A DNA stretch of 32,394 nt from the IMG/VR virus record IMGVR_UViG_3300010167_000008, positions 1-32,394 of that record; one strand, given 5' to 3'. The translations under genes and the position numbers were made by a program. Within the stretch, counting starts at the first letter, position 1. The number at the start of each line of letters is the position of its first letter. The notes under the pieces are model-generated. The model was not told the origin of the DNA. It saw only the letters and a list, made by a program, of their open reading frames with translations, and did not search any database. Below, in pieces: positions 2,787-20,804 of this stretch. The stretch is from a virus.

Positions 2787-2956
2787 TTTACGGTCTTATA
2801 TGACACGCATTTGTGATTTTCTTTTGGATTGACATTTCCGTTGCGTGAGTTTGCACGTTGGTTCTGTCTCGAATTTGTTCTTTTTTCTATCAAAAAGGTA
2901 AAGGCATTTTTTCGGTTGGGACATTTTGTTTGTGTTTATTCAGTGGATTAAATGGC

Positions 2957-3022
2957 AGGGGACAGTCCGTTTGGCAGGCACGATTTAAATTAACCGCGCA
3001 CACGTCTCGGCGCGTGTCCCCT
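2957..3022 (-). other. GC-rich structured element between the methyltransferase gene and the lysis cassette
   Basis: 8-bp stem aggggaca (2957..2964) / tgtcccct (3015..3022), plus an adjacent 5-bp stem cgcgc (2995..2999) / gcgcg (3010..3014). Confidence 0.35.
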
Positions 3023-3056
3023 TCCCTCATAGTAATTAAAAAGCGGCAACGTTCAA

Positions 3057-4742
3057 TCATGGTTTTTTGAAGATTAAAACGTTCTGATGCACTCTGACGA
3101 CTTTGCTCGTCTTCATGCAGTTGTTGGCTCGCATTCCCGCGTTGCCAAATTTATTAACGAGGATAATCTCGTTGTAAAACTTGCAGCCCGCGTCCGTGAA
3201 CGCTCGGATAGTGTCGGGGACGAACCCATAGTAATTCCCGTCCTTGTCGCGAAATTCGCTAACTACAAAGGCAGCAAACCCGCCACGTTTGAGCACACCG
3301 CAAGACTTTTCTATTATCTGTCGGTACACCTGCATAAACGCGGGATATTTCATCGTGGATAGGTCTTCTGGAATGTCGCTGTACACTTCGAGGTCTCCAT
3401 ACGGAGGGCAACTCATAACCATATCAAACTCCGCTCCTTCGAGCATATCAAGGATTTGATTGCTGTCGCCGATAATCCAATTCGGCATCTTGATTTCAGG
3501 AGCCGCAACGGGGGTGCGCATGGTGGGTCGAATGCCAACTATCCACAGTAGGTCAGCGGGTTGTAGAAAGTCAATACACTTCGCCTCGTAGTATGGGTCG
3601 AGTTGAATTCCATTGTAAGTAGTAACCATTGCAGCGGAATGATAATCGCTACCATCGACGTCGACGATAGTAACCATGTCCCTCCAATTTGGCGGCGCGT
3701 ACTTATCAAGTCGCACCTCAGGGTCAGCACCAACGCGCACCGCAACAACGGGGATGTCCCGCATAGTGTCGCGCAACCCCCAAAGTACACCCGCAAGGGT
3801 CATGCCGCTTCCGCATGGCATTACAATCCGATTGACTTCGGGTGGAATGTTCTGAACTTGTTGGCGGTTCTGAGTAACAGCCTCTTCGCACTCCATACCA
3901 AAGGGGACGTCAAGATAATTCTCGGCGGCGGCAAATTCTCGGCTCCGTGCAATAATGACGGAGTTATAACCTTCCTTGTGCTGAATTATCCTCGCGCCGC
4001 TGTCTTGCGCCGCAATTAGTTCGTCGGATAACTGACCTTCGGGCGCGTGTACCACAACGGGAATGCCAAAGGCTTTTCCAATTTTGGCGAGGATATTGAT
4101 TTGCGGGCTGCTTCTGCTCCCCGCCGTTGTTATCCCCTGACCGACCGTGCGGTTCTTGATAACGAATTGAGAAGCCGTGCGAGCCTTCCCGCCAACCGCG
4201 CCACCGATTTCGAACAAGTCGTCCCGCTTGAAATAGACGTCGTCTATCAGTTGCACGGGGGTTAATTCGTTCGGGTTGCTGATGATTTGCGGTTTGGCGT
4301 TGGCAGGTGATTTGAATATTTCGCGGGCTTGCTCGTAATTGCTCTCGACCTGCTCCTTGCGGAGTTCAATGCCCGTGTAATCATAACCGAGTTTGTTGGC
4401 AACAATTCCTCGAACGGAGCCTCCTGCAAATGGATCAAGAATAGTCCCTCCCGTTGGCGCAAACCACTTGTATAACACTTCGCAGAGTGTCGCGCTGAAT
4501 ATACTTATATTAGATTTGAATTGTGTGCCAAATCTTGCATTATTCCTATTAGCGCCGCACCGTTCATTTCTTCCTAATTCTGACTTGATTCCCTTGCGTA
4601 ACCATTTGCCCTCGTTTTTATTATAATCGCCCGAGCGGGTGTCAATTATGGAAAATGGGTTCAGTAGGTACTTCCCCGCGCAAGTGGTTGTCGCGTCGAC
4701 CTTGTCGCCGAATAAGTTGTAATTTTTATTTTGTTCTGTCAT
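3057..4742 (-). CDS. Fusion protein (561 aa): permuted N6/N4 DNA amino-methyltransferase with an inserted ACC-deaminase/D-cysteine-desulfhydrase-like PLP enzyme domain (aa ~158-407, nt ~3522..4271)
   Basis: MTase motif I ILDPFAGGSVRGIVANKLGYDYTGIEL (aa 101-127) and motif IV FDMVMSCPPYGDLEVYSD (aa 439-456). Insert carries TPVQ, FKRDDL, GGAVGGKAR (K186), ITTAGSRSSPQ, PCGSGMTLAGVLWGL and GIQLDPYYEAKC. ATGA overlap with the helicase gene. Confidence 0.8.
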   Translation of the reverse strand: MTEQNKNYNLFGDKVDATTTCAGKYLLNPFSIIDTRSGDYNKNEGKWLRKGIKSELGRNERCGANRNNARFGTQFKSNISIFSATLCEVLYKWFAPTGGTILDPFAGGSVRGIVANKLGYDYTGIELRKEQVESNYEQAREIFKSPANAKPQIISNPNELTPVQLIDDVYFKRDDLFEIGGAVGGKARTASQFVIKNRTVGQGITTAGSRSSPQINILAKIGKAFGIPVVVHAPEGQLSDELIAAQDSGARIIQHKEGYNSVIIARSREFAAAENYLDVPFGMECEEAVTQNRQQVQNIPPEVNRIVMPCGSGMTLAGVLWGLRDTMRDIPVVAVRVGADPEVRLDKYAPPNWRDMVTIVDVDGSDYHSAAMVTTYNGIQLDPYYEAKCIDFLQPADLLWIVGIRPTMRTPVAAPEIKMPNWIIGDSNQILDMLEGAEFDMVMSCPPYGDLEVYSDIPEDLSTMKYPAFMQVYRQIIEKSCGVLKRGGFAAFVVSEFRDKDGNYYGFVPDTIRAFTDAGCKFYNEIILVNKFGNAGMRANNCMKTSKVVRVHQNVLIFKKP

Positions 4743-6178
4743 ACTTTTTTTGATTTAGTTGGTAGTGAAAAAGGGTCGAGTTCGCCGAAGCAAAAGTCAA
4801 GGTCGGGCATCGCCCAATCGAGACCGACATAGCAATAACAGTTTTCGAAGCCCTTGCGGTTTACGTTCTTTTTGACAACGCCCTGCCTTGATAACTCTTG
4901 GTCGATGAGTTTACGGGTTGCAATCGGCAACACCCCAAAGGTGCTCCGCAACTTGTCGTTCACGTCTTTAACCGCAAGTATTGCCAACGGGTTATCCTTG
5001 TCAATCATAAAGATTTTCATATACTCCGAATAACTCGTTTGCACGGTTTTATCCGTTCGGTTGAGTTTGGGCTTGTAACGGAAACTTTTAATAAAATCGA
5101 CAATAATCTTGTTGCGTTCGGGTTGGAATACGTCGAGGAAGTTGGTGTTTCTGTCCCACGCAATTTCAAGCGTTTTCTCGGGACTTTCATATTCAATCAT
5201 ACGTCTAATTGTCCCGCTGTCAATATCGTTTATTACAATGGGATTATTACTGAAATACACCACACTTGCGCACACTTGCAACGTGCCGCCGTTGGTACTC
5301 AATTCACGATAAGGAACGCTCGTGCCACTTGTAATCCTCTTGATGAGGTTGTTGTCTTTTTGGCGTTCGTTGCTTTCGTCAATCAGTATCGTCGAGGCGC
5401 GGTTCATCTTGCGTTTTTCGACGATAAAGTCGTAACCGCTGACCCGTGTGCTGAATGCCTCCTCAGTAATCTCGCAGATAAGTCCGTCAAAGATTTGGCA
5501 CATGAGAGCAACGAATGTCGATTTGCCGCTCCCGCCTTTTCCTTTGACAGATACAAAGTATTGTCCGCCCCGTGTACGTTGGAGCGATTTGCTGAACACC
5601 GAAAGGAGTTCGTAGTATTCGTCCTCATCCTTGACGCCGAAAACATTGTAACAAAGTTTCCGAAAGTTGCTCGGCGGCTCTTTGTCTTCCCAATCGAGAT
5701 TATCCACGAGTACGCTGTCAATGCAGCACACCTCGCGGCATCGCGGGGATAATGTTTCAGGTTTCAGATATCGAACGATGTACGGGTGCGGCTTGAGCCA
5801 CAACCCGAGTTCGATGTTGTCGTCGGCGTGGTTACGGAAGTGCAAATTGCGCTCGTAACCATTTGCCGCCGCCCGCTGTTCGCGGTCAATTATACGCTTG
5901 AAAATCTGGTCGATAAAGTCTTTGCAGTCTATAAGTTCCTGTCGGTCAGTGAGTATCTCTTGGATGTCGGGATACTCATGCTCTTCGGGTGTCATATTCG
6001 CCAACACCCGCCGCGCAATAAGGTAACAGACGGGGAATTGTGTACTCGATTCCTTGACCGAAATCTTATACATTACTCCCTCGTCGTTGAACCAATATTC
6101 GCCGCCATAATAGACAATGTCGTCAATCCAATACTTTCCGCGTGATGTGATATAGGTGGAAAAATCTTTGCTATCCAT
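4739..6178 (-). CDS. SF3 helicase, D5/P4-type NTPase (479 aa)
   Basis: Walker A VKGKGGSGKSTF, Walker B-like ILIDES, then LIKRITSGTSVPYRELSTNGGTLQVCASVVYFSNNP, typical of P4/D5 C-terminal helicase domains; no primase motifs recognised. Confidence 0.7.
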   Translation of the reverse strand: MDSKDFSTYITSRGKYWIDDIVYYGGEYWFNDEGVMYKISVKESSTQFPVCYLIARRVLANMTPEEHEYPDIQEILTDRQELIDCKDFIDQIFKRIIDREQRAAANGYERNLHFRNHADDNIELGLWLKPHPYIVRYLKPETLSPRCREVCCIDSVLVDNLDWEDKEPPSNFRKLCYNVFGVKDEDEYYELLSVFSKSLQRTRGGQYFVSVKGKGGSGKSTFVALMCQIFDGLICEITEEAFSTRVSGYDFIVEKRKMNRASTILIDESNERQKDNNLIKRITSGTSVPYRELSTNGGTLQVCASVVYFSNNPIVINDIDSGTIRRMIEYESPEKTLEIAWDRNTNFLDVFQPERNKIIVDFIKSFRYKPKLNRTDKTVQTSYSEYMKIFMIDKDNPLAILAVKDVNDKLRSTFGVLPIATRKLIDQELSRQGVVKKNVNRKGFENCYCYVGLDWAMPDLDFCFGELDPFSLPTKSKKV

Positions 6179-7651: not shown

Positions 7652-8577
7652 TAATCGAATGGGTGTTCTTCGGGTTCGGTTGTTACGGGTTCGGGTTCGG
7701 ATTTGAGCCCTGCAATAATTGCCTCTTTTTTTGGCGGCGGTGGTGTGTCCGCTTGCGCGGGTGGGTGTTGCGTTTCTTTCTTCGGTTCGGATACTTTGGT
7801 TAATACCTTGTTATCTTTGACCTCAACGTATTCAACGTCAATCGGTTTGCCTTCGTTTTCTTGCGAATAACCTGCAAACTCGTTCGGGAATGCTCGCTCA
7901 AACGCTTGCGCGAGTGCCACCTTGCAAATCATGAACGCGGGGCGCGTGAGCCATATCTCGTTCACTTCCTTGTCGGTGTACTTTCTAAGTTTGTCGTCCC
8001 AGTTGGTATTCTTTGCATTGTTGAAGCGGTTTTCCTCGAAAGATACTTCGCTGATTTCGTGGTGTTCCCAATCCTTGCGATATACCTCCGCCCATCCTGC
8101 AATGAGGATTTCCTTTGGCAGCAACCACTCGCCCGCACGACGAACGAGTTCGCCTTTGTCGGTTACAACGATGATTCCGTGTTTGCAGCCATTGTAGTTC
8201 GGGCTCATGGCAGCGCGGCGCATGGCAACCTCGTAGGATGGCATTAACACCACTTTTCCGCCTTTCTTTGTAATGGATACATCGCGGCTTGCGGGGTTGA
8301 GACCGAGAATTTGCGCGTCGATAAATACCTGCAATAATTCGCCATAATCCCAACAATTTTCGAAGTCTTTCTTCGCTTGGTGTGGCAACTCTGCCTCGCA
8401 GGATTTCCCCATATTTTTCAGAAAATCCTCCTTTGATGTAATGTCTTTCAAGCCAAAGAAGGCTCGCATGGTTATTCCGCATCTCTCCTTACAAAGTGCG
8501 GCGGCTTCCTGAGCCGTTGCAAGTGCAATCGCCTCTTGCATGGTTACTTTTTTGATTGCTTTGGTTTCGTCACTCAT
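7651..8577 (-). CDS. RecT/Bet-like single-strand annealing protein (308 aa)
   Basis: LGLNPASRDVSITKKGGKVVLMPSYEVAMRRA and WLTRPAFMICKVALAQAFERAFPNEF resemble the RecT-family core; Pro/Glu-rich acidic C-terminal tail ending EEHPFD. Confidence 0.6.
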   Translation of the reverse strand: MSDETKAIKKVTMQEAIALATAQEAAALCKERCGITMRAFFGLKDITSKEDFLKNMGKSCEAELPHQAKKDFENCWDYGELLQVFIDAQILGLNPASRDVSITKKGGKVVLMPSYEVAMRRAAMSPNYNGCKHGIIVVTDKGELVRRAGEWLLPKEILIAGWAEVYRKDWEHHEISEVSFEENRFNNAKNTNWDDKLRKYTDKEVNEIWLTRPAFMICKVALAQAFERAFPNEFAGYSQENEGKPIDVEYVEVKDNKVLTKVSEPKKETQHPPAQADTPPPPKKEAIIAGLKSEPEPVTTEPEEHPFD

Positions 8578-8746
8578 TTTCTTTTAAATTAAGTTGATAA
8601 TTTGTTTGTTGCAATAATGCTTCGAGGGCTTCTTTTTGGTAGTAACGGCGATTCTGGTCAATGGTTGCCCGCCATATTTCGTCGTCCAATTTTTTAATCA
8701 TCTCCTCGAGCGATTTCCGTTTGTGTTCATCGAGATTTGTTGCCAT
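8570..8746 (-). CDS. Small coiled-coil protein (58 aa; below the ORF-track cutoff)
   Basis: Hand translation gives MATNLDEHKRKSLEEMIKKLDDEIWRATIDQNRRYYQKEALEALLQQTNYQLNLKENE; its stop overlaps the RecT-like start (ATGAGTGA). Confidence 0.45.
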   Translation of the reverse strand: MATNLDEHKRKSLEEMIKKLDDEIWRATIDQNRRYYQKEALEALLQQTNYQLNLKENE

Positions 8747-8758
8747 ACTATAACGGTT

Positions 8759-8890
8759 TTAAAAGTGCAACGGATCCGCGAAACGGTTGGTAGGTTCGCT
8801 CGCAATGTAACATATTGAGCCGTGTTTGCGTTTGAATTTCAGCCACCTCTTTTGTTCTCGCAGGTGGTCGCGATAGTCTTCAAAGGTCAT
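8759..8890 (-). CDS. Small hypothetical protein (43 aa; alternative start at 8920)
   Basis: MTFEDYRDHLREQKRWLKFKRKHGSICYIASEPTNRFADPLHF; the longer track ORF (to 9205) would overlap 8880..9305 in another frame. Confidence 0.3.
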   Translation of the reverse strand: MTFEDYRDHLREQKRWLKFKRKHGSICYIASEPTNRFADPLHF

Positions 8891-9305
8891 TCCTTTGGGA
8901 CGGGAGGATAAAATAGTCATCGGGATTAAATTTTGGTTTGTACTTCTTTTCGTAAAAATCTTTAACTTTTTGGCACTTTTCAGCGTCTTGGAAGTTGTTG
9001 GTGTACTTCTTTGCCTTTCTGAATAGATCGTGGAACTCATGCAAGTTTTCGGACATTTCTTGCAGCCCTTTCCGTATGGCAGCCCATCGGGATAATTCGG
9101 CGAGCATCCGCTCATTTTCCATCTGAGCAATCTCGGGCGTGATATACTTTGTCTTCCGTTGTTGCGCCGCGTGTGCCGTCTGCAATTCACACCTGCCATT
9201 TGCACGGCATTCCCCGCAAGGTGTGAAGCAAGGGTGTTGCGAGTAGTTTGGGTTGCGGGGAAACACTACTCGTTCCATAGGATAATTCGCCGCTTGATTA
9301 GTCAT
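8880..9305 (-). CDS. Hypothetical protein with an N-terminal Cys cluster (141 aa)
   Basis: CFTPCGECRANGRC; ATGA overlap with the stop of the Rad50-like gene. Confidence 0.5.
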   Translation of the reverse strand: MTNQAANYPMERVVFPRNPNYSQHPCFTPCGECRANGRCELQTAHAAQQRKTKYITPEIAQMENERMLAELSRWAAIRKGLQEMSENLHEFHDLFRKAKKYTNNFQDAEKCQKVKDFYEKKYKPKFNPDDYFILPSQRNDL

Positions 9306-11233
9306 GACTCAATAATTAACGGGGAATTTTCTTTAACCCGTAACTCCACGAGGCACGGCAACAACGGCATATTCTTTTTCTCGCAGTTTTCGGCATTGTC
9401 GAAAAAGATAGGAAGGGCAACGGCGAAATGGTCTTGAAATCGTTGGCAGAGCATTGATAGTTTCGCATTTGCGCGGCTTGTATTTGGATTTTCAAACCCG
9501 TCAATCTTCATAATGGCAACCTCTTCGAAGCCCTCTTGCGTTATAAGTTTACGGAACAAAGTGATTTCAATTCCATCGGGAAGAAACTTGGAAATAGCGT
9601 CCTGACAATCAGTGCGATAATCGTTCTCAGCCTGCTCAATGGCAATCATTTGTCGCTCGTTCTCAATTAACGCCTTGCGCACCATTTCCGAACGGGCATC
9701 ATTTTTCGCAATCTGCTCGTCCGCCGTTGCATACCCATACGCAATCTCATCAGCCTTTTTGTCTTCGGATTGTAACTGCTCGATTTCGAGTTTGGCTGCT
9801 TGGATTTTTTCGCTGTTATTCACACCCTTGAAATCCGTGATGATTTTGGCTTGTAACTCCGCAATCCTCTTCGCCTTGTCGTCTTCCCACTTGCAAAGGT
9901 TGGCAGCGTTTTCGTCGTTGATAACCTGATTGTCGTGCGAAAACTGTTCACGGGCTTTCGCGTTGGTTTCGTTAATGGCAGCGTTACGGGCGGCGATTTC
10001 CTCGTTCTCCTTCTTTATTGCTTCGTTCTGCAATTCGATTGACTCGTTAAAAGTCTTGTCAAGGTTGCGCAATTCCGAACCTTGCTTTGTAACCGCGTCA
10101 ATCTCGGCAACAATGGCGGCTTTCCGCTCTTCAAGATTTTGCACCGATTTGTCAATCTCTTCCAATTTGGCAGCAATTTTCAGAGCGGCGTCAGCCTTGC
10201 TCGTATTGCGTTGAATTTCGGCGCAATCGGCATTCGTGCAGTACGGGCAAACCATACAGATGAAGTCCTCTTTATCGGCGGCGGCGGAGGTTACACTTGC
10301 AACCGTTTCTCGCTGTTTATTCCAATATGCAATCTTTTCATCGATGGCTTCGCGTTCTGCTACCTTCCCGCGATAAGTTACCAACAACCGCTCAATTTCG
10401 GGGTTCTTCTTGAGTTCAAGGTACATTTTAGGAGCCTCAATTTCGGCGGGCGTGAAAACGAGTTGCGGTTTGGGTGTAAACTTTTCGCCGTGAATATCTT
10501 GTATCTTTTCGCGGAGGCTTTGATTTTCCGCTAAAACATCGCTTGACACGGCGGCACGTTCTTCTTCATACATTTGCTCGATTTCTTTTTGAAGTGCGCT
10601 GATTCGGGCTGTATTGCGGTCGGTTTTTGGTTTTTCAGCGAAAGTCTCCCGCAAACTCTTTGATTTTATGTTCAACTCCTCCATTTCAGCCTTCTGCTCG
10701 TTGATTTCCTTGCGCAACACCGCTTTATTCGGAAGTTCGCGAATATAGTCAATCAGGTTCACGTTCACAATGGAGGAAATTATCTTGAGTTTATCCTTTT
10801 GCGCAAGGCTGATGAAATATTGCGGGTTTGTGAAAAGAGCAAGGTCGTAACCCTTGCAAGTATCCGCGATAGCGGCATTGTAGTCCGCCAACTTTACGGG
10901 CGTTTCGTTAAGAAAATATTCGCAGTTCAATTCGGTTTTTAACTTTTCGTCGTCCGTGCCGCGCTCGCGGGAATATAGTGGCTTTGCAGCCTTGCGGAAA
11001 ATCATGTCGTCCGTGTGGAAGGCAACTTCGGCAAATCGGTTGCCGTCCCTGTCTTCGTGGTTGTACACGTTGGACGATGTGAATTCTTTCATGTCGATAG
11101 AGCGTTGGTTCATACACCATAAAAAAGCATCTAAAATGGTGGTTTTTCCGCTCCCGTTTTCGCCGCTCACGGTGGCGGGGAATGCCACCGTGAGGTCGTG
11201 GTGTTTCTTGAATCTTTTAATTTCGATTTTCAT
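9302..11233 (-). CDS. Rad50/SbcC-like SMC-type ATPase with a zinc hook (643 aa)
   Basis: Walker A GENGSGKTT, long coiled-coil middle, mid-protein CPYC hook (aa 329-332, nt ~10238..10249), C-terminal Walker B-like LPIFFDNAE. Confidence 0.7.
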   Translation of the reverse strand: MKIEIKRFKKHHDLTVAFPATVSGENGSGKTTILDAFLWCMNQRSIDMKEFTSSNVYNHEDRDGNRFAEVAFHTDDMIFRKAAKPLYSRERGTDDEKLKTELNCEYFLNETPVKLADYNAAIADTCKGYDLALFTNPQYFISLAQKDKLKIISSIVNVNLIDYIRELPNKAVLRKEINEQKAEMEELNIKSKSLRETFAEKPKTDRNTARISALQKEIEQMYEEERAAVSSDVLAENQSLREKIQDIHGEKFTPKPQLVFTPAEIEAPKMYLELKKNPEIERLLVTYRGKVAEREAIDEKIAYWNKQRETVASVTSAAADKEDFICMVCPYCTNADCAEIQRNTSKADAALKIAAKLEEIDKSVQNLEERKAAIVAEIDAVTKQGSELRNLDKTFNESIELQNEAIKKENEEIAARNAAINETNAKAREQFSHDNQVINDENAANLCKWEDDKAKRIAELQAKIITDFKGVNNSEKIQAAKLEIEQLQSEDKKADEIAYGYATADEQIAKNDARSEMVRKALIENERQMIAIEQAENDYRTDCQDAISKFLPDGIEITLFRKLITQEGFEEVAIMKIDGFENPNTSRANAKLSMLCQRFQDHFAVALPIFFDNAENCEKKNMPLLPCLVELRVKENSPLIIES

Positions 11234-11315
11234 TGATTACTTTGGTGTTAAGATATTTTTGATACAAGTTGTAAAAAAATGCAGCACGGCGGATTTGAGA
11301 TTGATATTCTTCAAT

Positions 11316-11474
11316 TTATTTTTCTGCCTCTGCCTTGCGTTCCTCAGCGGAGGATAACATAGTTTTATAATCCCTGATTTTCTTTTGGGAATGGTACATG
11401 GCGTCGCTTATGAAAGCACTTTCTTCGGCTTCAATCTTATAGATGAGAGCGTCTAATGGTTCGGGTTGTTTCAT
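11316..11474 (-). CDS. Small hypothetical protein (52 aa; below the ORF-track cutoff)
   Basis: Hand translation gives MKQPEPLDALIYKIEAEESAFISDAMYHSQKKIRDYKTMLSSAEERKAEAEK; starts 1 nt after the stop of 11476..11733. Confidence 0.35.
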   Translation of the reverse strand: MKQPEPLDALIYKIEAEESAFISDAMYHSQKKIRDYKTMLSSAEERKAEAEK

Positions 11475-11475
11475 G

Positions 11476-11733
11476 TTAGTCAATGTTAGCGATTATGTCT
11501 TCTTTATTTTCGTATAAGTTCCACTCGTTAGCGGTTGATTCGTGTTTACAACCGTTGCGGTTGTCGGCGGTTATTACCTCATAGAGTACATGAGTATCAA
11601 TTTCCTCATTTCCGTCTCTTTGGCTTCGATTTTGGGTTTGGGTTTGGATTTTTTTCACAGTAACGCGAATAATACTGCAATGGTCTATTAAATAAACCTC
11701 TTGTCCGATGTTGAATTTTGTTTTAATGTCCAT
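11476..11733 (-). CDS. Hypothetical protein (85 aa)
   Basis: ORF on the coding strand within the early operon. Confidence 0.5.
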   Translation of the reverse strand: MDIKTKFNIGQEVYLIDHCSIIRVTVKKIQTQTQNRSQRDGNEEIDTHVLYEVITADNRNGCKHESTANEWNLYENKEDIIANID

Positions 11734-11754: not shown

Positions 11755-12339
11755 TTAAACGTTATAATCTGAAATTGCAAGCGGCATAATAACCGCGATT
11801 GAATTTTGCCAACGGGGTTCGTCGGATGTGCAAACAATCGGAACTTTATCCCCTTTGAAGTTGTAGATGATTTTCTTGTGCGCAAAGGCGTCAATCAACG
11901 AGCGATAAATCTCTGAGTTGATTGCAACCCGTGTAACGCCATTTTCGCAACCCTCTTGAGGTTCGAGTTCTTTGGCATTTTTTATAAATTCGTCAATGTC
12001 GGGAAATTTCAGTTCGTCGCCCGAATAAAAGGCAAAGAATGCTCCTTTGATTCCTTTTGCGTTGGTACATTGAATTCCGTCCTCTTGGACGATAATAGAA
12101 TGACATCCGAGCATTGCTGCATAACTTTCGCCATGCAAGATTTTCCCGTCAAGGAGTGTAATTTGCTCCTCGCTGAGGTTGCAGATGTCAGTCAGGTAGT
12201 TTTTAATCGCGCAATGTGCGTCAGTTGCATACGCAAACCCACCCTTGAAATGAATGTAATTCATTGCGGGGCGAATTTCGTCTTTGAGACACGCCTTGTG
12301 CATTTTCACAGACGAGTAGAAGTTGATTTTTTTTGCCAT
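11755..12339 (-). CDS. Sliding-clamp (DnaN)-like domain protein (194 aa)
   Basis: EIRPAMNYIHFKGGFAYATDAHCAI resembles the DnaN domain-I RP...TD pattern; KFPDIDEFI resembles the clamp FPDY..VIP linker; C-terminal IAVIMPLAI. Weak, by eye. Confidence 0.4.
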   Translation of the reverse strand: MAKKINFYSSVKMHKACLKDEIRPAMNYIHFKGGFAYATDAHCAIKNYLTDICNLSEEQITLLDGKILHGESYAAMLGCHSIIVQEDGIQCTNAKGIKGAFFAFYSGDELKFPDIDEFIKNAKELEPQEGCENGVTRVAINSEIYRSLIDAFAHKKIIYNFKGDKVPIVCTSDEPRWQNSIAVIMPLAISDYNV

Positions 12340-17818: not shown

Positions 17819-18901
17819 TTACCGGAATAATTGAACTTGCAAATCTATTACATATATTTTTGCTCCAATATCTTTACTCTCAGGAACAATCATTTTGTCT
17901 CTCCAACGTAACCAATTATAAGCAAATAAATTTGATAATACATCAAGATTATAAGTCCTATACGTATAATCTAACATGGAAAAGAATATAATTTCTTTTC
18001 CTGAATGATTATATATAAGTGCATCATTTCTAAATATTTGTAATCCATAAATGAAAGGGTATTGTAAATTAGTATTAATAGATGTTTCATCCAACAAATT
18101 AAAAACAACATACCAACCTGTTCCTTGTACACCCGAACCAATTAATATTTTGTCGTGAAATAAAGCCATTATATTATTCCCGTTACTTCTTGACGCTGCT
18201 GCTAATGTAACTATACGAGTTTTTTCAGTTGTTAAATCTATAATGTCAATAATATTAGTATCGCTTCTATGTACATATAGATTTCCTCTCCACACCACAC
18301 CACAAAACCGATTTGCTGACGCTAGAAGAACCATCATACGATAGGTTTCAGTATTTAAGTCAAAAATGCAACAAAGATTGCTATTGGGTGCGAAAATGTA
18401 CAATGCATCACGATATATAATTGAAAATGTTGTCGAAGTAAAAGGAATATTAACAGTTCTAACTACTTTTGTTTGTGTATTAATTATTTCAATATTTGCT
18501 TGATTGCTTGTTATATATAAGTTATCTTTCCAAGCATTTATTGAATTTCTAACTCTTGAACTTCCCAACGATACTTCGCTTGCAGTTTCAGTAATACAAT
18601 CAAAAATTGTCATATTTTGACTATTATATCCTGCACCATAAAAAACATCATTATGAATACATGATGCTCTTATTTCTCCTTGTTCTGTACGGTTATATGA
18701 CCTAAATTTTGGAGTTGGATCAGGAACTTTTACAACAACGGGATTAAACCCATCAACTCCACTGTCGACGTTGTATGTCCCGTTGGCAGTAACATTCAAA
18801 GGATTAATTACGGGAGGAGTAGTTGTTCCTCCACTCCCTTCGGCTTCAAAGTAGCGGGTAATTATAACCCGTTTTTCTTTCATATCTTTTGATAATTGCA
18901 T
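17819..18901 (-). CDS. Putative receptor-binding tail protein with a ~7-bladed beta-propeller-like repeat domain (360 aa)
   Basis: Seven ~40-aa repeats sharing (W/Y/F)(R/K/H)(D/G)xLY ... hhhDhxTE, e.g. MTIFDCITETASEV, IEIINTQTKVV, CCIFDLNTETYRM, IDIIDLTTEKTRI, VVFNLLDETSI, IFFSMLDYTYRT, IYVIDLQVQ; last large gene of the tail module; very AT-rich. Confidence 0.55.
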   Translation of the reverse strand: MQLSKDMKEKRVIITRYFEAEGSGGTTTPPVINPLNVTANGTYNVDSGVDGFNPVVVKVPDPTPKFRSYNRTEQGEIRASCIHNDVFYGAGYNSQNMTIFDCITETASEVSLGSSRVRNSINAWKDNLYITSNQANIEIINTQTKVVRTVNIPFTSTTFSIIYRDALYIFAPNSNLCCIFDLNTETYRMMVLLASANRFCGVVWRGNLYVHRSDTNIIDIIDLTTEKTRIVTLAAASRSNGNNIMALFHDKILIGSGVQGTGWYVVFNLLDETSINTNLQYPFIYGLQIFRNDALIYNHSGKEIIFFSMLDYTYRTYNLDVLSNLFAYNWLRWRDKMIVPESKDIGAKIYVIDLQVQLFR

Positions 18902-18953: not shown

Positions 18954-20804
18954 TTAATCCAATAAAATCAGAGTTAATTCTGCTATCCCTTTCTGCCATG
19001 TGCCTCCCGAGCAAGCGTATTTTTTCGCTTTTAAAATAAAGGTTGTTTTTTCTTTAATGTTATGGAATTCATATTGATACATATATAATTTCGCAATAAC
19101 TTCGGTCGATTTTTCATAAATATTATCTAGATGCGAATTTGGGAAGAATTGTATCCTTTTGAATTTTGAATTTGGTGCTGCCATCATTAATTCAGCACCA
19201 TCCCTTTTCAAAAAAAAGTTTACCCCATCAGAATGAATATCATCAGAAAAGGAAACACCGTCTTCTTCGTTAGTTTCCGAAAATGGTATAACGAATAATT
19301 CTTTTTCAACGGGCAAATTATCATTTTCTATCTCTAATACCCTTATTTGATTATTTTTAACATAATCAAGACTATCAAATCTAACTATGTTTTTTTGAGC
19401 GGAATCAATAAATGTTCTTCTTACAGACTTTATAGAAATAATTTTATCTGTAATATCGATTATATTATTATCAGGAAAATTGTAATCAAAGAATTCAATT
19501 TCATTGTCATTAATAATAATTCCATTTTTAGTTAAATTAGATATTGTTAATATCAAATCAACCGCCGTGCATTGTGGCATATTGAATTGAAGATGTACGT
19601 AATTGTTATAGATTAATTCTTCTTGAAATTCTTCTATTTCTGCAAAAAAAAGACCATGCCTACCATTATTTGAGGCATCCGTTCCGAGTGCCTGCGAAGA
19701 ATCTAATTCAACCCACCCGTCAGGTTTGTTATAAGATTCAGGAGTTAATGCAAGGAAATTATGTTTATTCCATAATTGAAAATAAATTTCTTGTCCTTCT
19801 TCGAGTTCATACGGTTTAAATGGCGGAAATGGTGCGGTGTTGTTCTGTCTCCATATAACTAACTGTTTAGGCGTAACATTGTAATAGTTCATATTTTGGT
19901 CAAACGCGAGTTGCCCCCACGTTGATGGTTTAACTAATCCCCATACACTTTGCCCCGTTTGGCTATCTATTCGAATAACATCCCACATTGCAGTAGTTAC
20001 TTTCATTTTTTTATTCGCACGAAAACCATATACCCAATGCCAAACTCCGTCAAGTGTCTGAAATTGTCTACTTACAATAGATATTTCAGATGGATTATTT
20101 GGCAAAAAATATGTTCTGATATTTGGATTAGTAGGATGCGACCCATAACCACCGAGAACTATTATTTCTTTTGTCAAATAGTTAATGCTGCCACCTAAAT
20201 CATTTCTTTTAATATAAACATTGTTTATTAGAGTTGGTATATTTTTTGAAGTAATTCCGAAATTTAATAGGCTTTTTTCTAAAAGATACTTTAATTTTAC
20301 GCTTGGCAAATAATTAATTTTATTCGGTATATCCGCTTCCATTAAATTCAAATATTTTCCAATTCCATAATTTCCAACTTGGTCTGAATTGACAGGTGGA
20401 TTAGTTGCACCCCAAAAAACTTTATCTGAAAGTGTAAGATATGTATCTATTAATCCAGATTCTCGTAATTCCTTCAATTTAATTATATTTCCATACGCAA
20501 ATATGCAATCATAAGAATCATTAAATTCTCGAATTAATAATTCGCCATGTATAACTCCGTTTGGAAAATAAATATTAGCATTCTTCTTCGTTCTAATAAA
20601 TGTACCTCTATATTGTGGAAGATGAGCGAAATTGAATATCCTATCGTTTGTAGGTGTTCGATTTACTTTGAAAGATTGTGTTCTGTTTAATTTCATTTTC
20701 TCAAACATAAATAATGAATTCTCATACATATAAGAAAATGAAATATCGTCTAATTCTATCTCAACTCCGTCTATAAATAATCTGTTCATAATACTGTCCT
20801 CCAA
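18954..20804 (-). CDS. Large tail-tip/baseplate protein (616 aa; alternative start at 20789 gives an ATGA overlap with the upstream stop)
   Basis: Second gene downstream of the tape measure; AT-rich; assigned by synteny only. Confidence 0.5.
   Translation of the reverse strand: MEDSIMNRLFIDGVEIELDDISFSYMYENSLFMFEKMKLNRTQSFKVNRTPTNDRIFNFAHLPQYRGTFIRTKKNANIYFPNGVIHGELLIREFNDSYDCIFAYGNIIKLKELRESGLIDTYLTLSDKVFWGATNPPVNSDQVGNYGIGKYLNLMEADIPNKINYLPSVKLKYLLEKSLLNFGITSKNIPTLINNVYIKRNDLGGSINYLTKEIIVLGGYGSHPTNPNIRTYFLPNNPSEISIVSRQFQTLDGVWHWVYGFRANKKMKVTTAMWDVIRIDSQTGQSVWGLVKPSTWGQLAFDQNMNYYNVTPKQLVIWRQNNTAPFPPFKPYELEEGQEIYFQLWNKHNFLALTPESYNKPDGWVELDSSQALGTDASNNGRHGLFFAEIEEFQEELIYNNYVHLQFNMPQCTAVDLILTISNLTKNGIIINDNEIEFFDYNFPDNNIIDITDKIISIKSVRRTFIDSAQKNIVRFDSLDYVKNNQIRVLEIENDNLPVEKELFVIPFSETNEEDGVSFSDDIHSDGVNFFLKRDGAELMMAAPNSKFKRIQFFPNSHLDNIYEKSTEVIAKLYMYQYEFHNIKEKTTFILKAKKYACSGGTWQKGIAELTLILLD

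Follow-up and report, generated by a model that had tools for sequence, protein, structure and literature searches.

We identified, in one uninterrupted open reading frame (ORF) of a phage genome from IMG/VR (record IMGVR_UViG_3300010167_000008), a predicted pyridoxal 5′-phosphate (PLP) enzyme domain embedded in a predicted DNA amino-methyltransferase (here called the methylase), exactly where the two halves of the methylase meet. The window, i.e., the whole stretch of DNA that was analyzed, is a complete phage genome: it is 32,394 bp long, has a 123-bp direct terminal repeat, and carries a completeness rating of 100% in the IMG/VR record. The ORF encodes a protein of 561 amino acids (aa), which we refer to as P0001. 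Its cofactor and catalytic residues are conserved in both modules, the two modules are coupled repeatedly in other phages, and relatives of the PLP module are fused to DNA-directed partners. We tentatively favor the reading that P0001 is a sequential two-module hypermodification enzyme, the modules of which would act on an amino acid adduct, derived from S-adenosylmethionine (SAM), on adenine or cytosine of DNA.

A PLP enzyme domain at the junction of a permuted methylase

As a first-pass annotation of this DNA had described, the ORF reads through from 3057 to 4742 without an internal stop, it contains all of the peptides quoted from it, and its start is coupled by an ATGA overlap to the upstream helicase gene (Table 1). 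Pfam profile PF00291 (PALP) matched aa 167 to 341 with 47.3 bits (range, 47 to 50 bits; cut-off, 35), and PF01555 (N6_N4_Mtase) matched with 41 bits (29.6 bits in the genome scan; curated cut-off, 26.7). Residues 82 to 134 align to the C-terminal end of the PF01555 profile (positions 166 to 218 of 221), and residues 424 to 496 align to the N-terminal part of the beta-class methylase 2zie. Since the N-terminal piece matches the end of the profile and the C-terminal piece matches the start of a methylase, we concluded that the predicted methylase is circularly permuted relative to PF01555 and that the putative PLP domain sits at the junction of its halves. The junction is exact. Insert-less homologues align to aa 11 to 148 and 421 to 560 of P0001 with zero residues between the two blocks; in Enterococcus phage phiFL3A gp36, residue 276 is common to both flanks of the insertion point, and Listeria B054 gp77 and Mycobacterium phage Vincenzo gp1 have the same gapless junction. 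With both profiles above their cut-offs and an exact junction, the proposal of a PLP domain inside a permuted methylase was borne out.

The methylase halves of phiFL3A gp36 and B054 gp77 are 42 to 46% identical to those of P0001. They share with P0001 an N-terminal conserved module, which we call Nmot, and a permuted order in which motif I precedes motif IV. Their motif IV is TCPPY, compared with SCPPY in P0001, and the DLEVYSD, RDK, and HQNVL blocks match. However, they carry an N-terminal ParB domain and no PLP domain, whereas P0001 shows the reverse. A tblastn search over the genomes of PLP-free phages (phiFL3A, B054, and others) yielded only the two methylase halves. In the PHROG database, P0001 matched two ParB-methyltransferase families, phrog_12517 (E value, 2e-83) and phrog_498 (E value, 4e-69). 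The SAM motif DPFxGxG and the xPPY motif are shared with beta-class methyltransferases such as TTHA0409 (2zie) and CcrM (6pbd), and the PLP domain of P0001 sits where a beta-class enzyme would have its termini.

The resemblance of the insert to 1-aminocyclopropane-1-carboxylate (ACC) deaminase and D-cysteine desulfhydrase (DcyD), which the first-pass annotation had noticed, extends to structure. An AlphaFold2 model built on 80 homologues (predicted local distance difference test [pLDDT], 88; predicted template modeling score [pTM], 0.75) had as its best Foldseek matches in the PDB the DcyD structure 4d8t (E value, 9e-12) and the ACC deaminase homologue 1j0a (E value, 2.5e-11), both at a probability of 1.0. 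ACC deaminase (1f2d and 1tzk) and DcyD (4d8t) are the best matches of the insert in both sequence and fold. To map individual residues, we aligned a profile of 40 PLP domains to solved structures. K186, which had been proposed as the Schiff-base lysine, aligns with the PLP lysine of 1f2d (K51 of yeast ACC deaminase), 4d8t, and 1j0a. S212 and Q214 align with S78 and Q80 of 1f2d, and the GSGM sequence aligns with the glycine-rich phosphate loop of the solved relatives. Y385-E386 fall in the columns of Y295-E296 in 1f2d, and in 1j0e, the entry for the Y295F mutant, the Tyr column has F. D-cysteine desulfhydrases have Y-T or Y-S in these columns; hence, the Tyr-Glu pair of the insert is of the ACC deaminase type and not of the DcyD type.

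Across the 80 homologues, the invariant residues of the PLP domain are K186, S212-P213-Q214, G311-S312, D382, Y385-E386, and K388, and those of the methylase are D103, F105, G107, G108, and C445-P-P-Y448. Because cofactor and catalytic residues are invariant in both, the two modules appear to be under purifying selection. The PLP domain is approximately 70 residues shorter than its cellular relatives, the missing residues being at the N and C termini and in the small domain. Its score against NCBIfam TIGR01275 (27.6 to 31.1 bits) is far below the curated cut-off of 289.4, and its nearest clusters in an atlas search are almost wholly viral. We concluded that the predicted domains form a well-separated PALP subfamily. 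In contrast to ACC deaminase and DcyD, its members are built into or linked to a DNA enzyme and are found almost exclusively in viruses. The structural neighbors of the domain include cellular PALP-GNAT fusions in Bacillota. One structural neighbor cluster carries the Pfam domain ADDT, listed by the atlas beside aGPT-Pplase3; from its name, we take ADDT to be the amino-acid:DNA transferase of thymidine hypermodification.

These residues bear on two alternatives. In the first, the PLP-fold domain would be noncatalytic and would serve as a DNA-recognition or structural module, in the place of the target-recognition domain of alpha-class methylases. The position of the insert between the SAM-binding and catalytic halves fits this idea, as do the shortness of the domain and the replacement by Pro of an Asn that binds the PLP O3′. 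However, the Schiff-base Lys, the phosphate loop, and the Ser, Gln, and Tyr-Glu residues are invariant across hundreds of lineages, PLP domains also occur in stand-alone and terminal forms, and PLP-free relatives of the methylase work without any such module. We consider a noncatalytic role very unlikely.

The second alternative, put forward in the first-pass annotation, is beta-replacement of the cysteine synthase kind: aminoacrylate would be formed from serine, O-acetylserine, or cysteine, and the amine of a flipped base would attack it, leaving an alanyl group on N6 of adenine or N4 of cytosine. Fold-type-II enzymes do include beta-replacement enzymes that alkylate nucleobases, and the methylase pocket could activate the amine. 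Beta-replacement enzymes have Ser or Thr at the position facing the pyridine nitrogen, where ACC deaminase has Glu. In the insert, Glu occupies this position, and the Asn-loop signature typical of cysteine synthases is missing. In searches by sequence as well as by fold, DcyD, ACC deaminase, and threonine deaminase all rank ahead of cysteine synthases. Moreover, this mechanism would require one base to be in both active sites at once, which is improbable given the separate-gene and terminal-fusion forms described below, and it would leave the invariant SAM motif without a role. Alanylation is thus a poor fit to a site with the ACC deaminase Tyr-Glu pair, and we regard it as the least likely of the readings considered here. 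A second suggestion made at the same time, PLP chemistry on the amino acid moiety of SAM, fits the site better.

The insert had also been described as more GC-rich than the DNA around it. This is correct for overall GC content (0.535 in the insert versus 0.456 and 0.473 in the flanks), but the excess is confined to codon position 1 (0.61). GC content at codon position 3 (GC3) is 0.57, similar to that of the C-terminal methylase half (0.60) and of most other genes. We therefore rejected a foreign or recent origin of the insert as an explanation: GC3 equals that of the flanks, and the excess reflects amino acid composition. The pattern agrees with an old, widely shared insertion.

Recurrent coupling of the two modules in phages

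A search of 5.8 billion proteins gave 5,417 matches at an E value of ≤1e-3 among the candidates scored. The best 120 of these 5,417 are 44 to 57% identical to P0001, all have both PF00291 and PF01555, and many have an N-terminal ParB domain. The predicted fusion is, hence, not an artifact. With the PLP insert alone, an exhaustive search of 1.8 billion cluster representatives (clusters defined at 50% identity) gave 899 clusters at an E value of ≤1e-3 and 364 at ≤1e-30. We concluded that the fusion, as predicted from these matches, defines a large phage and prophage family of hundreds of lineages. Among cultured phages, the full fusion occurs in Pseudanabaena phage Pam4 and in two Erythrobacter phages, R6L and ZS04. 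Public automatic annotation labels the Pam4 protein “pyridoxal-phosphate dependent enzyme” and the R6L and ZS04 proteins “DNA modification methylase.” Mycobacterium phages Vincenzo and AlanGrant are further cultured members of the family and have the two modules in split form.

The first-pass annotation knew of no characterized enzyme with this architecture. That statement holds for the full-text literature, in which our searches gave no study of a DNA methyltransferase with a PLP domain within it or next to it, but the architecture itself is widespread, as the 899 clusters indicate. The R6L genome paper treats ORF1 as a single-domain CcrM-like methylase. A survey of the ParB fold lists fusions of ParB with N6_N4 methylases, none of them with a PLP domain (PMC12704722).

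We took a census of architectures in 135 cluster representatives, using hidden Markov models for Nmot (aa 20 to 60), the methylase N-half, the PLP domain, and the methylase C-half. The insertion form accounted for 64 representatives; the PLP domain follows a whole methylase in 21 and precedes it in 5, 4 are Nmot-PLP proteins, and 33 have the PLP domain only, some of which may be fragments. In a tree of the PLP domain (FastTree, poorly resolved), these architecture states interleave, with 44 changes in total, and the well-supported branches alone force at least 4 to 7 changes per state. For example, an insertion form is sister to an N-terminal form (support, 99), and a C-terminal form is sister to stand-alone forms (support, 95). 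The coupling also occurs between neighboring genes. In Vincenzo, gp1 is the methylase and gp2 is the PLP enzyme, and the two genes overlap. In locus L011, the methylase is two genes downstream of a separate PLP gene; in L018, it is two genes upstream of a fusion of Nmot, the PLP domain, and DNA polymerase A (P0130); and in L020/L021, an insert-less methylase is directly upstream of a PLP-GNAT fusion (P0160). In L022, a ParB-Nmot-PLP protein is followed by a ParB-methylase. We concluded that what appears to be the same PLP domain has been combined with one methylase family in no fewer than four arrangements: as an insertion, at the N terminus, at the C terminus, and in an adjacent gene. Because the insertion topology is not essential, an argument from it that the PLP site faces the base-binding pocket carries little weight.

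Other fusions involve partners that are directed at DNA or at its modification. P0155 is a ParB-Nmot-PLP protein, and in this protein and in the polymerase fusion P0130, the PLP module appears to be aimed at DNA in its own right. An Asp/Arg-hydroxylase-like domain is fused in two different topologies (P0154 and P0220), and P0126 has an extra class I methyltransferase.

Several further features were observed in these relatives. The L020/L021 locus lies on a large phage contig and includes, at 8001 to 11551, a modification island in which an insert-less xCPPY methylase is followed in turn by the PLP-GNAT fusion, another N6_N4 methylase, and a protein of the Mom family (PF25680); a thymidylate synthase gene and a dCTP-deaminase-like gene are nearby. 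Inteins with LAGLIDADG homing endonuclease domains interrupt the methylase C-half of the PLP-bearing proteins P0148 and P0157. Nmot behaves as an independent unit (P0130, P0144, P0155, and P0201; L005, positions 9268 to 10014): it is found on PLP proteins that have no methylase core or is split off into an upstream gene, and in relatives it stands between ParB and the core. It might conceivably serve in DNA binding or base flipping. At positions 11766 to 13241 of L005, a gene convergent with the methylase-PLP gene encodes a 491-aa protein with a full N6_N4 methylase and an Mrr-like/NA-iREase1 nuclease.

The range of partners raises the alternative that P0001 is a polyvalent protein, the PLP domain of which has an independent metabolic or antidefense role and is merely carried with the methyltransferase. 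Phage proteins often combine unrelated counterdefense domains, although no PLP domain is among those described (PMC5512222), and the cellular PALP-GNAT fusions in Bacillota could be viewed in the same way. However, the partner of the PLP domain is always the same methylase family, almost always with an xCPPY motif (approximately 200 of 202 fused proteins and 5 of 5 methylases linked in trans). Repeated refusion in different orders points to a shared task rather than codelivery, and the family is almost wholly viral. We consider the polyvalent alternative unlikely.

What the PLP module may act on

A PLP enzyme needs a primary amine, and a methyl group offers no substrate. An ACC deaminase site handles a C4 amino acid that derives from the methionine part of SAM. 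The site in P0001 is of the ACC deaminase type, and the PLP domain is constantly paired with a SAM enzyme; the two modules are therefore most simply linked by the aminobutyrate moiety of SAM. The PLP module would meet this group after its transfer to DNA, while it is still on SAM, or when it is left on S-adenosylhomocysteine (SAH). We favor DNA as the place of action because of the ParB/Nmot-PLP proteins, the polymerase fusion, the fusions with acetyltransferase, hydroxylase, and methylase domains, and the cluster with a Mom-family gene.

According to the sequential reading that we favor, P0001 would be a self-contained, postreplicative DNA base-modifying enzyme. Module 1 (aa 76 to 148 plus 421 to 561) would bind SAM through DPFAGG, and its CPPY pocket would receive the flipped adenine or cytosine. 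Module 2 (aa ~149 to 420) would be a trimmed ACC deaminase-like enzyme, with PLP on K186 and with Tyr385 and Glu386 placed as in ACC deaminase. The two modules would act in turn on the same base. The SAM module would put a group with a primary amine on the exocyclic nitrogen, the obvious candidate being the 3-amino-3-carboxypropyl (2-aminobutyrate) group of SAM; the PLP module would then form an aldimine with the DNA-bound amino acid and tailor it. Decarboxylation to an aminopropyl group would be the likeliest tailoring step, by analogy with the phage enzymes described below, and the product would be a bulky, charged, nonmethyl adduct that shields the phage DNA from host nucleases. The specific version of this scheme, in which SAM donates its aminobutyrate group rather than its methyl group to the exocyclic nitrogen of cytosine or adenine, the PLP module shortens it (an N-(3-aminopropyl) base being one possible result), and relatives hydroxylate, acetylate, or methylate the product, is possible, but we regard it as doubtful.

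The closest CHARACTERISED precedent for the insert, which the first-pass annotation missed, is a pair of DNA-acting PLP decarboxylases, Pseudomonas M6 gp52 and Salmonella ViI gp226. These enzymes remove the carboxyl group from amino acids that are bound to thymine in polymeric DNA (Lee et al., PMC8989533). The top structural matches of both are PLP-dependent enzymes, gp226 was modeled on 1j0a, and such enzymes are sometimes fused with the kinase and transferase of the thymidine pathway (PMC8989533). Like the insert, gp52 and gp226 are phage-encoded fold-type-II proteins of approximately 280 aa with the lysine approximately 36 residues from the start of the domain, and in both gp52 and the insert, an acidic residue follows the conserved Tyr (FYD and YYE, respectively). 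The homology between the insert and gp52 is remote: the insert matches gp52 with a BLASTP E value of 5e-4 and in hhalign with a probability of 94% (E value, 9e-8), and relatives of the insert match phrog_7093, the PHROG of gp52, at E values of 1e-7 to 1e-11. P0001 itself matches phrog_3650 (E value, 6e-32) and not phrog_7093 at an E value of ≤0.01. Their partners also differ: gp52 and gp226 work with a 5-hydroxymethyldeoxyuridine kinase and an amino-acid:DNA transferase on thymidine, whereas the partner in P0001 is a SAM-dependent amino-methyltransferase. We concluded that the systems are alike in outline and that the insert is not a member of the gp52/gp226 class.

A second parallel comes from RNA. 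In the wybutosine pathway of tRNA, TYW2 transfers an aminocarboxypropyl group from SAM, and TYW4 and TYW5 then tailor the product. Tailoring there by a methylase and a 2-oxoglutarate hydroxylase resembles the class I methylase and Asp/Arg-hydroxylase-like domains fused in relatives of P0001. However, the two systems have no sequence relationship, and the wybutosine pathway acts on RNA and has no PLP step.

We compared 206 PLP-linked with 120 insert-less methylase cores. In the insert-less cores, motif IV is TSPPY in 58 and xCPPY in 52. TSPPY is the classical N4-cytosine signature, and because PLP-free relatives carry it, cytosine, and not adenine, may be the target base. Candidate PLP-specific methylase signatures at position 110 (T/V) and at W472 were rejected, since these differences follow clades. 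P0001 itself is a divergent member: of the 149 columns with at least 90% conservation, it departs from the family at 11 (family median, 3), and residues 83 and 84 are among these.

Several observations weigh against the sequential reading. Our literature searches found no experiment on any member of the family, and we know of no precedent for aminocarboxypropyl transfer to DNA. Motifs X, I, and IV to VIII are conserved alike in PLP-linked and PLP-free cores; because the two sets are indistinguishable, the core is most simply read as methyl transferring. The sole correlate of PLP linkage is Cys445, where motif IV usually has Asp, Asn, or Ser before the invariant P446-P447-Y448, yet the PLP-free proteins of phiFL3A and B054 also have TCPPY. 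P0001 has D83S and P84A substitutions (nucleotides 4491 to 4496) at a pair of positions that is Asp-Pro in each of the other 119 fused homologues and in at least 85% of the 120 PLP-free methylases. The earlier statement that both enzymes look intact is therefore sound for the PLP part, with a caveat for the methylase part, namely, these substitutions before motif I and the Cys before PPY. Within the PLP site, the family-invariant P213 stands for Asn79, and this Asn binds the PLP O3′ in ACC deaminase and DcyD. We considered whether the insert is closer to M6 gp52 than to cellular enzymes and rejected this, as its profile scores 33 bits with gp52 and 48 to 50 bits with cellular DcyD and ACC deaminase. 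Because the insert is nearer to the cellular enzymes, the gp52 analogy rests on fold, size, and phage context. Finally, ParB_N (PF02195) has no match in P0001 or elsewhere in its genome, although many relatives have ParB.

Some of these points favor an alternative in which P0001 is an ordinary methyltransferase that makes N4-methylcytosine or N6-methyladenine and the substrate of the PLP module is the 2-aminobutyrate moiety of SAM or SAH, either free or bound. The module might remove inhibitory SAH, or it might cleave SAM by gamma-elimination to methylthioadenosine, 2-oxobutyrate, and ammonia and so starve SAM-dependent host defenses. The indistinguishable cores are as this alternative predicts, an ACC deaminase-like site (K, S, Q, and Y-E) suits C4 amino acids of the SAM type, and the PLP domain is coupled specifically to one family of SAM-using enzymes. 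However, fusions with ParB/Nmot, DNA polymerase A, GNAT, and hydroxylase domains would be odd for a small-molecule enzyme, and the many topologies, including separate proteins, speak against a fixed geometry at the cofactor pocket. Destruction of SAM inside a SAM-using enzyme would be self-defeating, and we know of no PLP enzyme of this fold that degrades SAH or SAM in this way. We consider methylation with cofactor processing possible, although somewhat improbable, and we retain sequential action on DNA as our preferred, tentative reading.

Genome context and implications

The source contig was found in three termite-gut metagenome runs, and a megablast search found no near-identical phage genomes. 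The minus strand encodes every long ORF of the genome. Read from the terminase side, genes for portal, tail, and tape-measure proteins are followed by a recombination and replication block, the methylase-PLP ORF, and lysis genes. The recombination and replication block encodes a phrog_6247 protein, a RusA-like protein, an SbcC-like ATPase, RecT, a metallo-hydrolase, and a D5-type primase-helicase (the phrog_6247 protein is labeled “topoisomerase” and has no Pfam match). The primase-helicase gene (DUF5906/D5-type; 4739..6178) is directly upstream of the methylase-PLP ORF. Downstream, an ORF of 56 aa (2890..3060, minus strand) is translationally coupled to the methylase-PLP gene; its product has four Cys residues, and no family was detected for it.

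Table 1. Positions of features in and around the methylase-PLP ORF (P0001)
Feature	Residues (aa)	Nucleotides	Strand	Remarks
Whole ORF (P0001), 561 aa	1-561	3057..4742	-	Methyltransferase N-half, PLP domain, methyltransferase C-half
N-terminal conserved module (Nmot)	20-60	4563..4685	-	Consensus PPFSxLDxRxGxWxxRKxxWxxLGIxSExGR
Methyltransferase N-half	76-148	4299..4517	-	Pre-motif-I helix, SAM motif I, motif II region
Pre-motif-I helix				SIFSATLCE in P0001; family version SIFDPVLCE
SAM motif I	D103-PFAGG	4419-4436	-
Inserted segment	149-420	3483..4298	-
PALP core	158-405	3528-4271	-
Putative Schiff-base lysine	K186	4185-4187	-
Ser-Pro-Gln	S212-P213-Q214	4101-4109	-
Phosphate loop	C310-GSGM	3801-3815	-
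Tyr-Glu pair	Y385-E386-A-K388	3579-3590	-
Methyltransferase C-half	421-561	3060..3482	-	Motif III-like strand NWIIGDS; conserved blocks DLEVYSD, RDK, YNE, HQNVL
Motif IV	C445-PPY	3399-3410	-
ATGA overlap, primase-helicase stop/methylase-PLP start		4739..4742	-
ATGA overlap, methylase-PLP stop/56-aa ORF start		3057..3060	-

No DNA polymerase gene was detected in the complete genome. The absence of any other DNA modification gene, which the first-pass annotation had reported, held in profile searches: the complete genome gave no match to a second PF01555 domain, to a C5 or Dam methylase, or to ParB, thymidylate synthase, or ADDT, and none to PF00303 or PF18724. Among the 32 ORFs scanned with Pfam or PHROGs, none was a kinase or transferase of thymidine hypermodification. 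Since there is neither a polymerase nor another modification gene, any modification would therefore be postreplicative and would be carried out by P0001 alone with host metabolites.

Two adjacent ORFs of the tail module (17819 to 18901 and 18954 to 20804, minus strand; 360 and 616 aa) stand out in composition. Their GC content is 0.31 to 0.32 and their GC3 is 0.20 to 0.24, compared with a GC3 of 0.43 to 0.62 in the other long genes examined. They have no Pfam match and only one weak PHROG match. Together they resemble a cassette of recent acquisition, which may be a tail fiber or receptor-binding module.

Known phage DNA hypermodifications mostly start from a modified pyrimidine that is made before replication, and they need several genes. 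Here, a single gene unites a PLP enzyme with a predicted base-flipping enzyme that depends on SAM, and the genome that carries it has no polymerase or other modification gene. If the product is a nonmethyl adduct, it would represent a new chemical class of postreplicative purine or cytosine modification. This would have consequences for restriction evasion and for the specificity of type IV restriction; it might cause artifacts in metagenome sequencing (nanopore and single-molecule real-time [SMRT] signals), and it could offer a compact tool for site-directed DNA derivatization. If the aminobutyrate route is correct, it would allow a single protein to produce cationic hypermodified DNA independently of any pool of modified nucleotides, and this route would be distributed widely among phages of cyanobacteria, proteobacteria, actinobacteria, and gut bacteria. 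A methyltransferase with its own cofactor-processing enzyme would still be new if SAM or SAH were the only substrates of the PLP module. We found no characterization of the family in the literature, and its size and its cultured members (Pam4, R6L, ZS04, Vincenzo, and AlanGrant) make the question directly testable. We conclude that P0001 is not a one-of-a-kind enzyme but belongs to what appears, from its relatives, to be a modular system that is widespread in phages.

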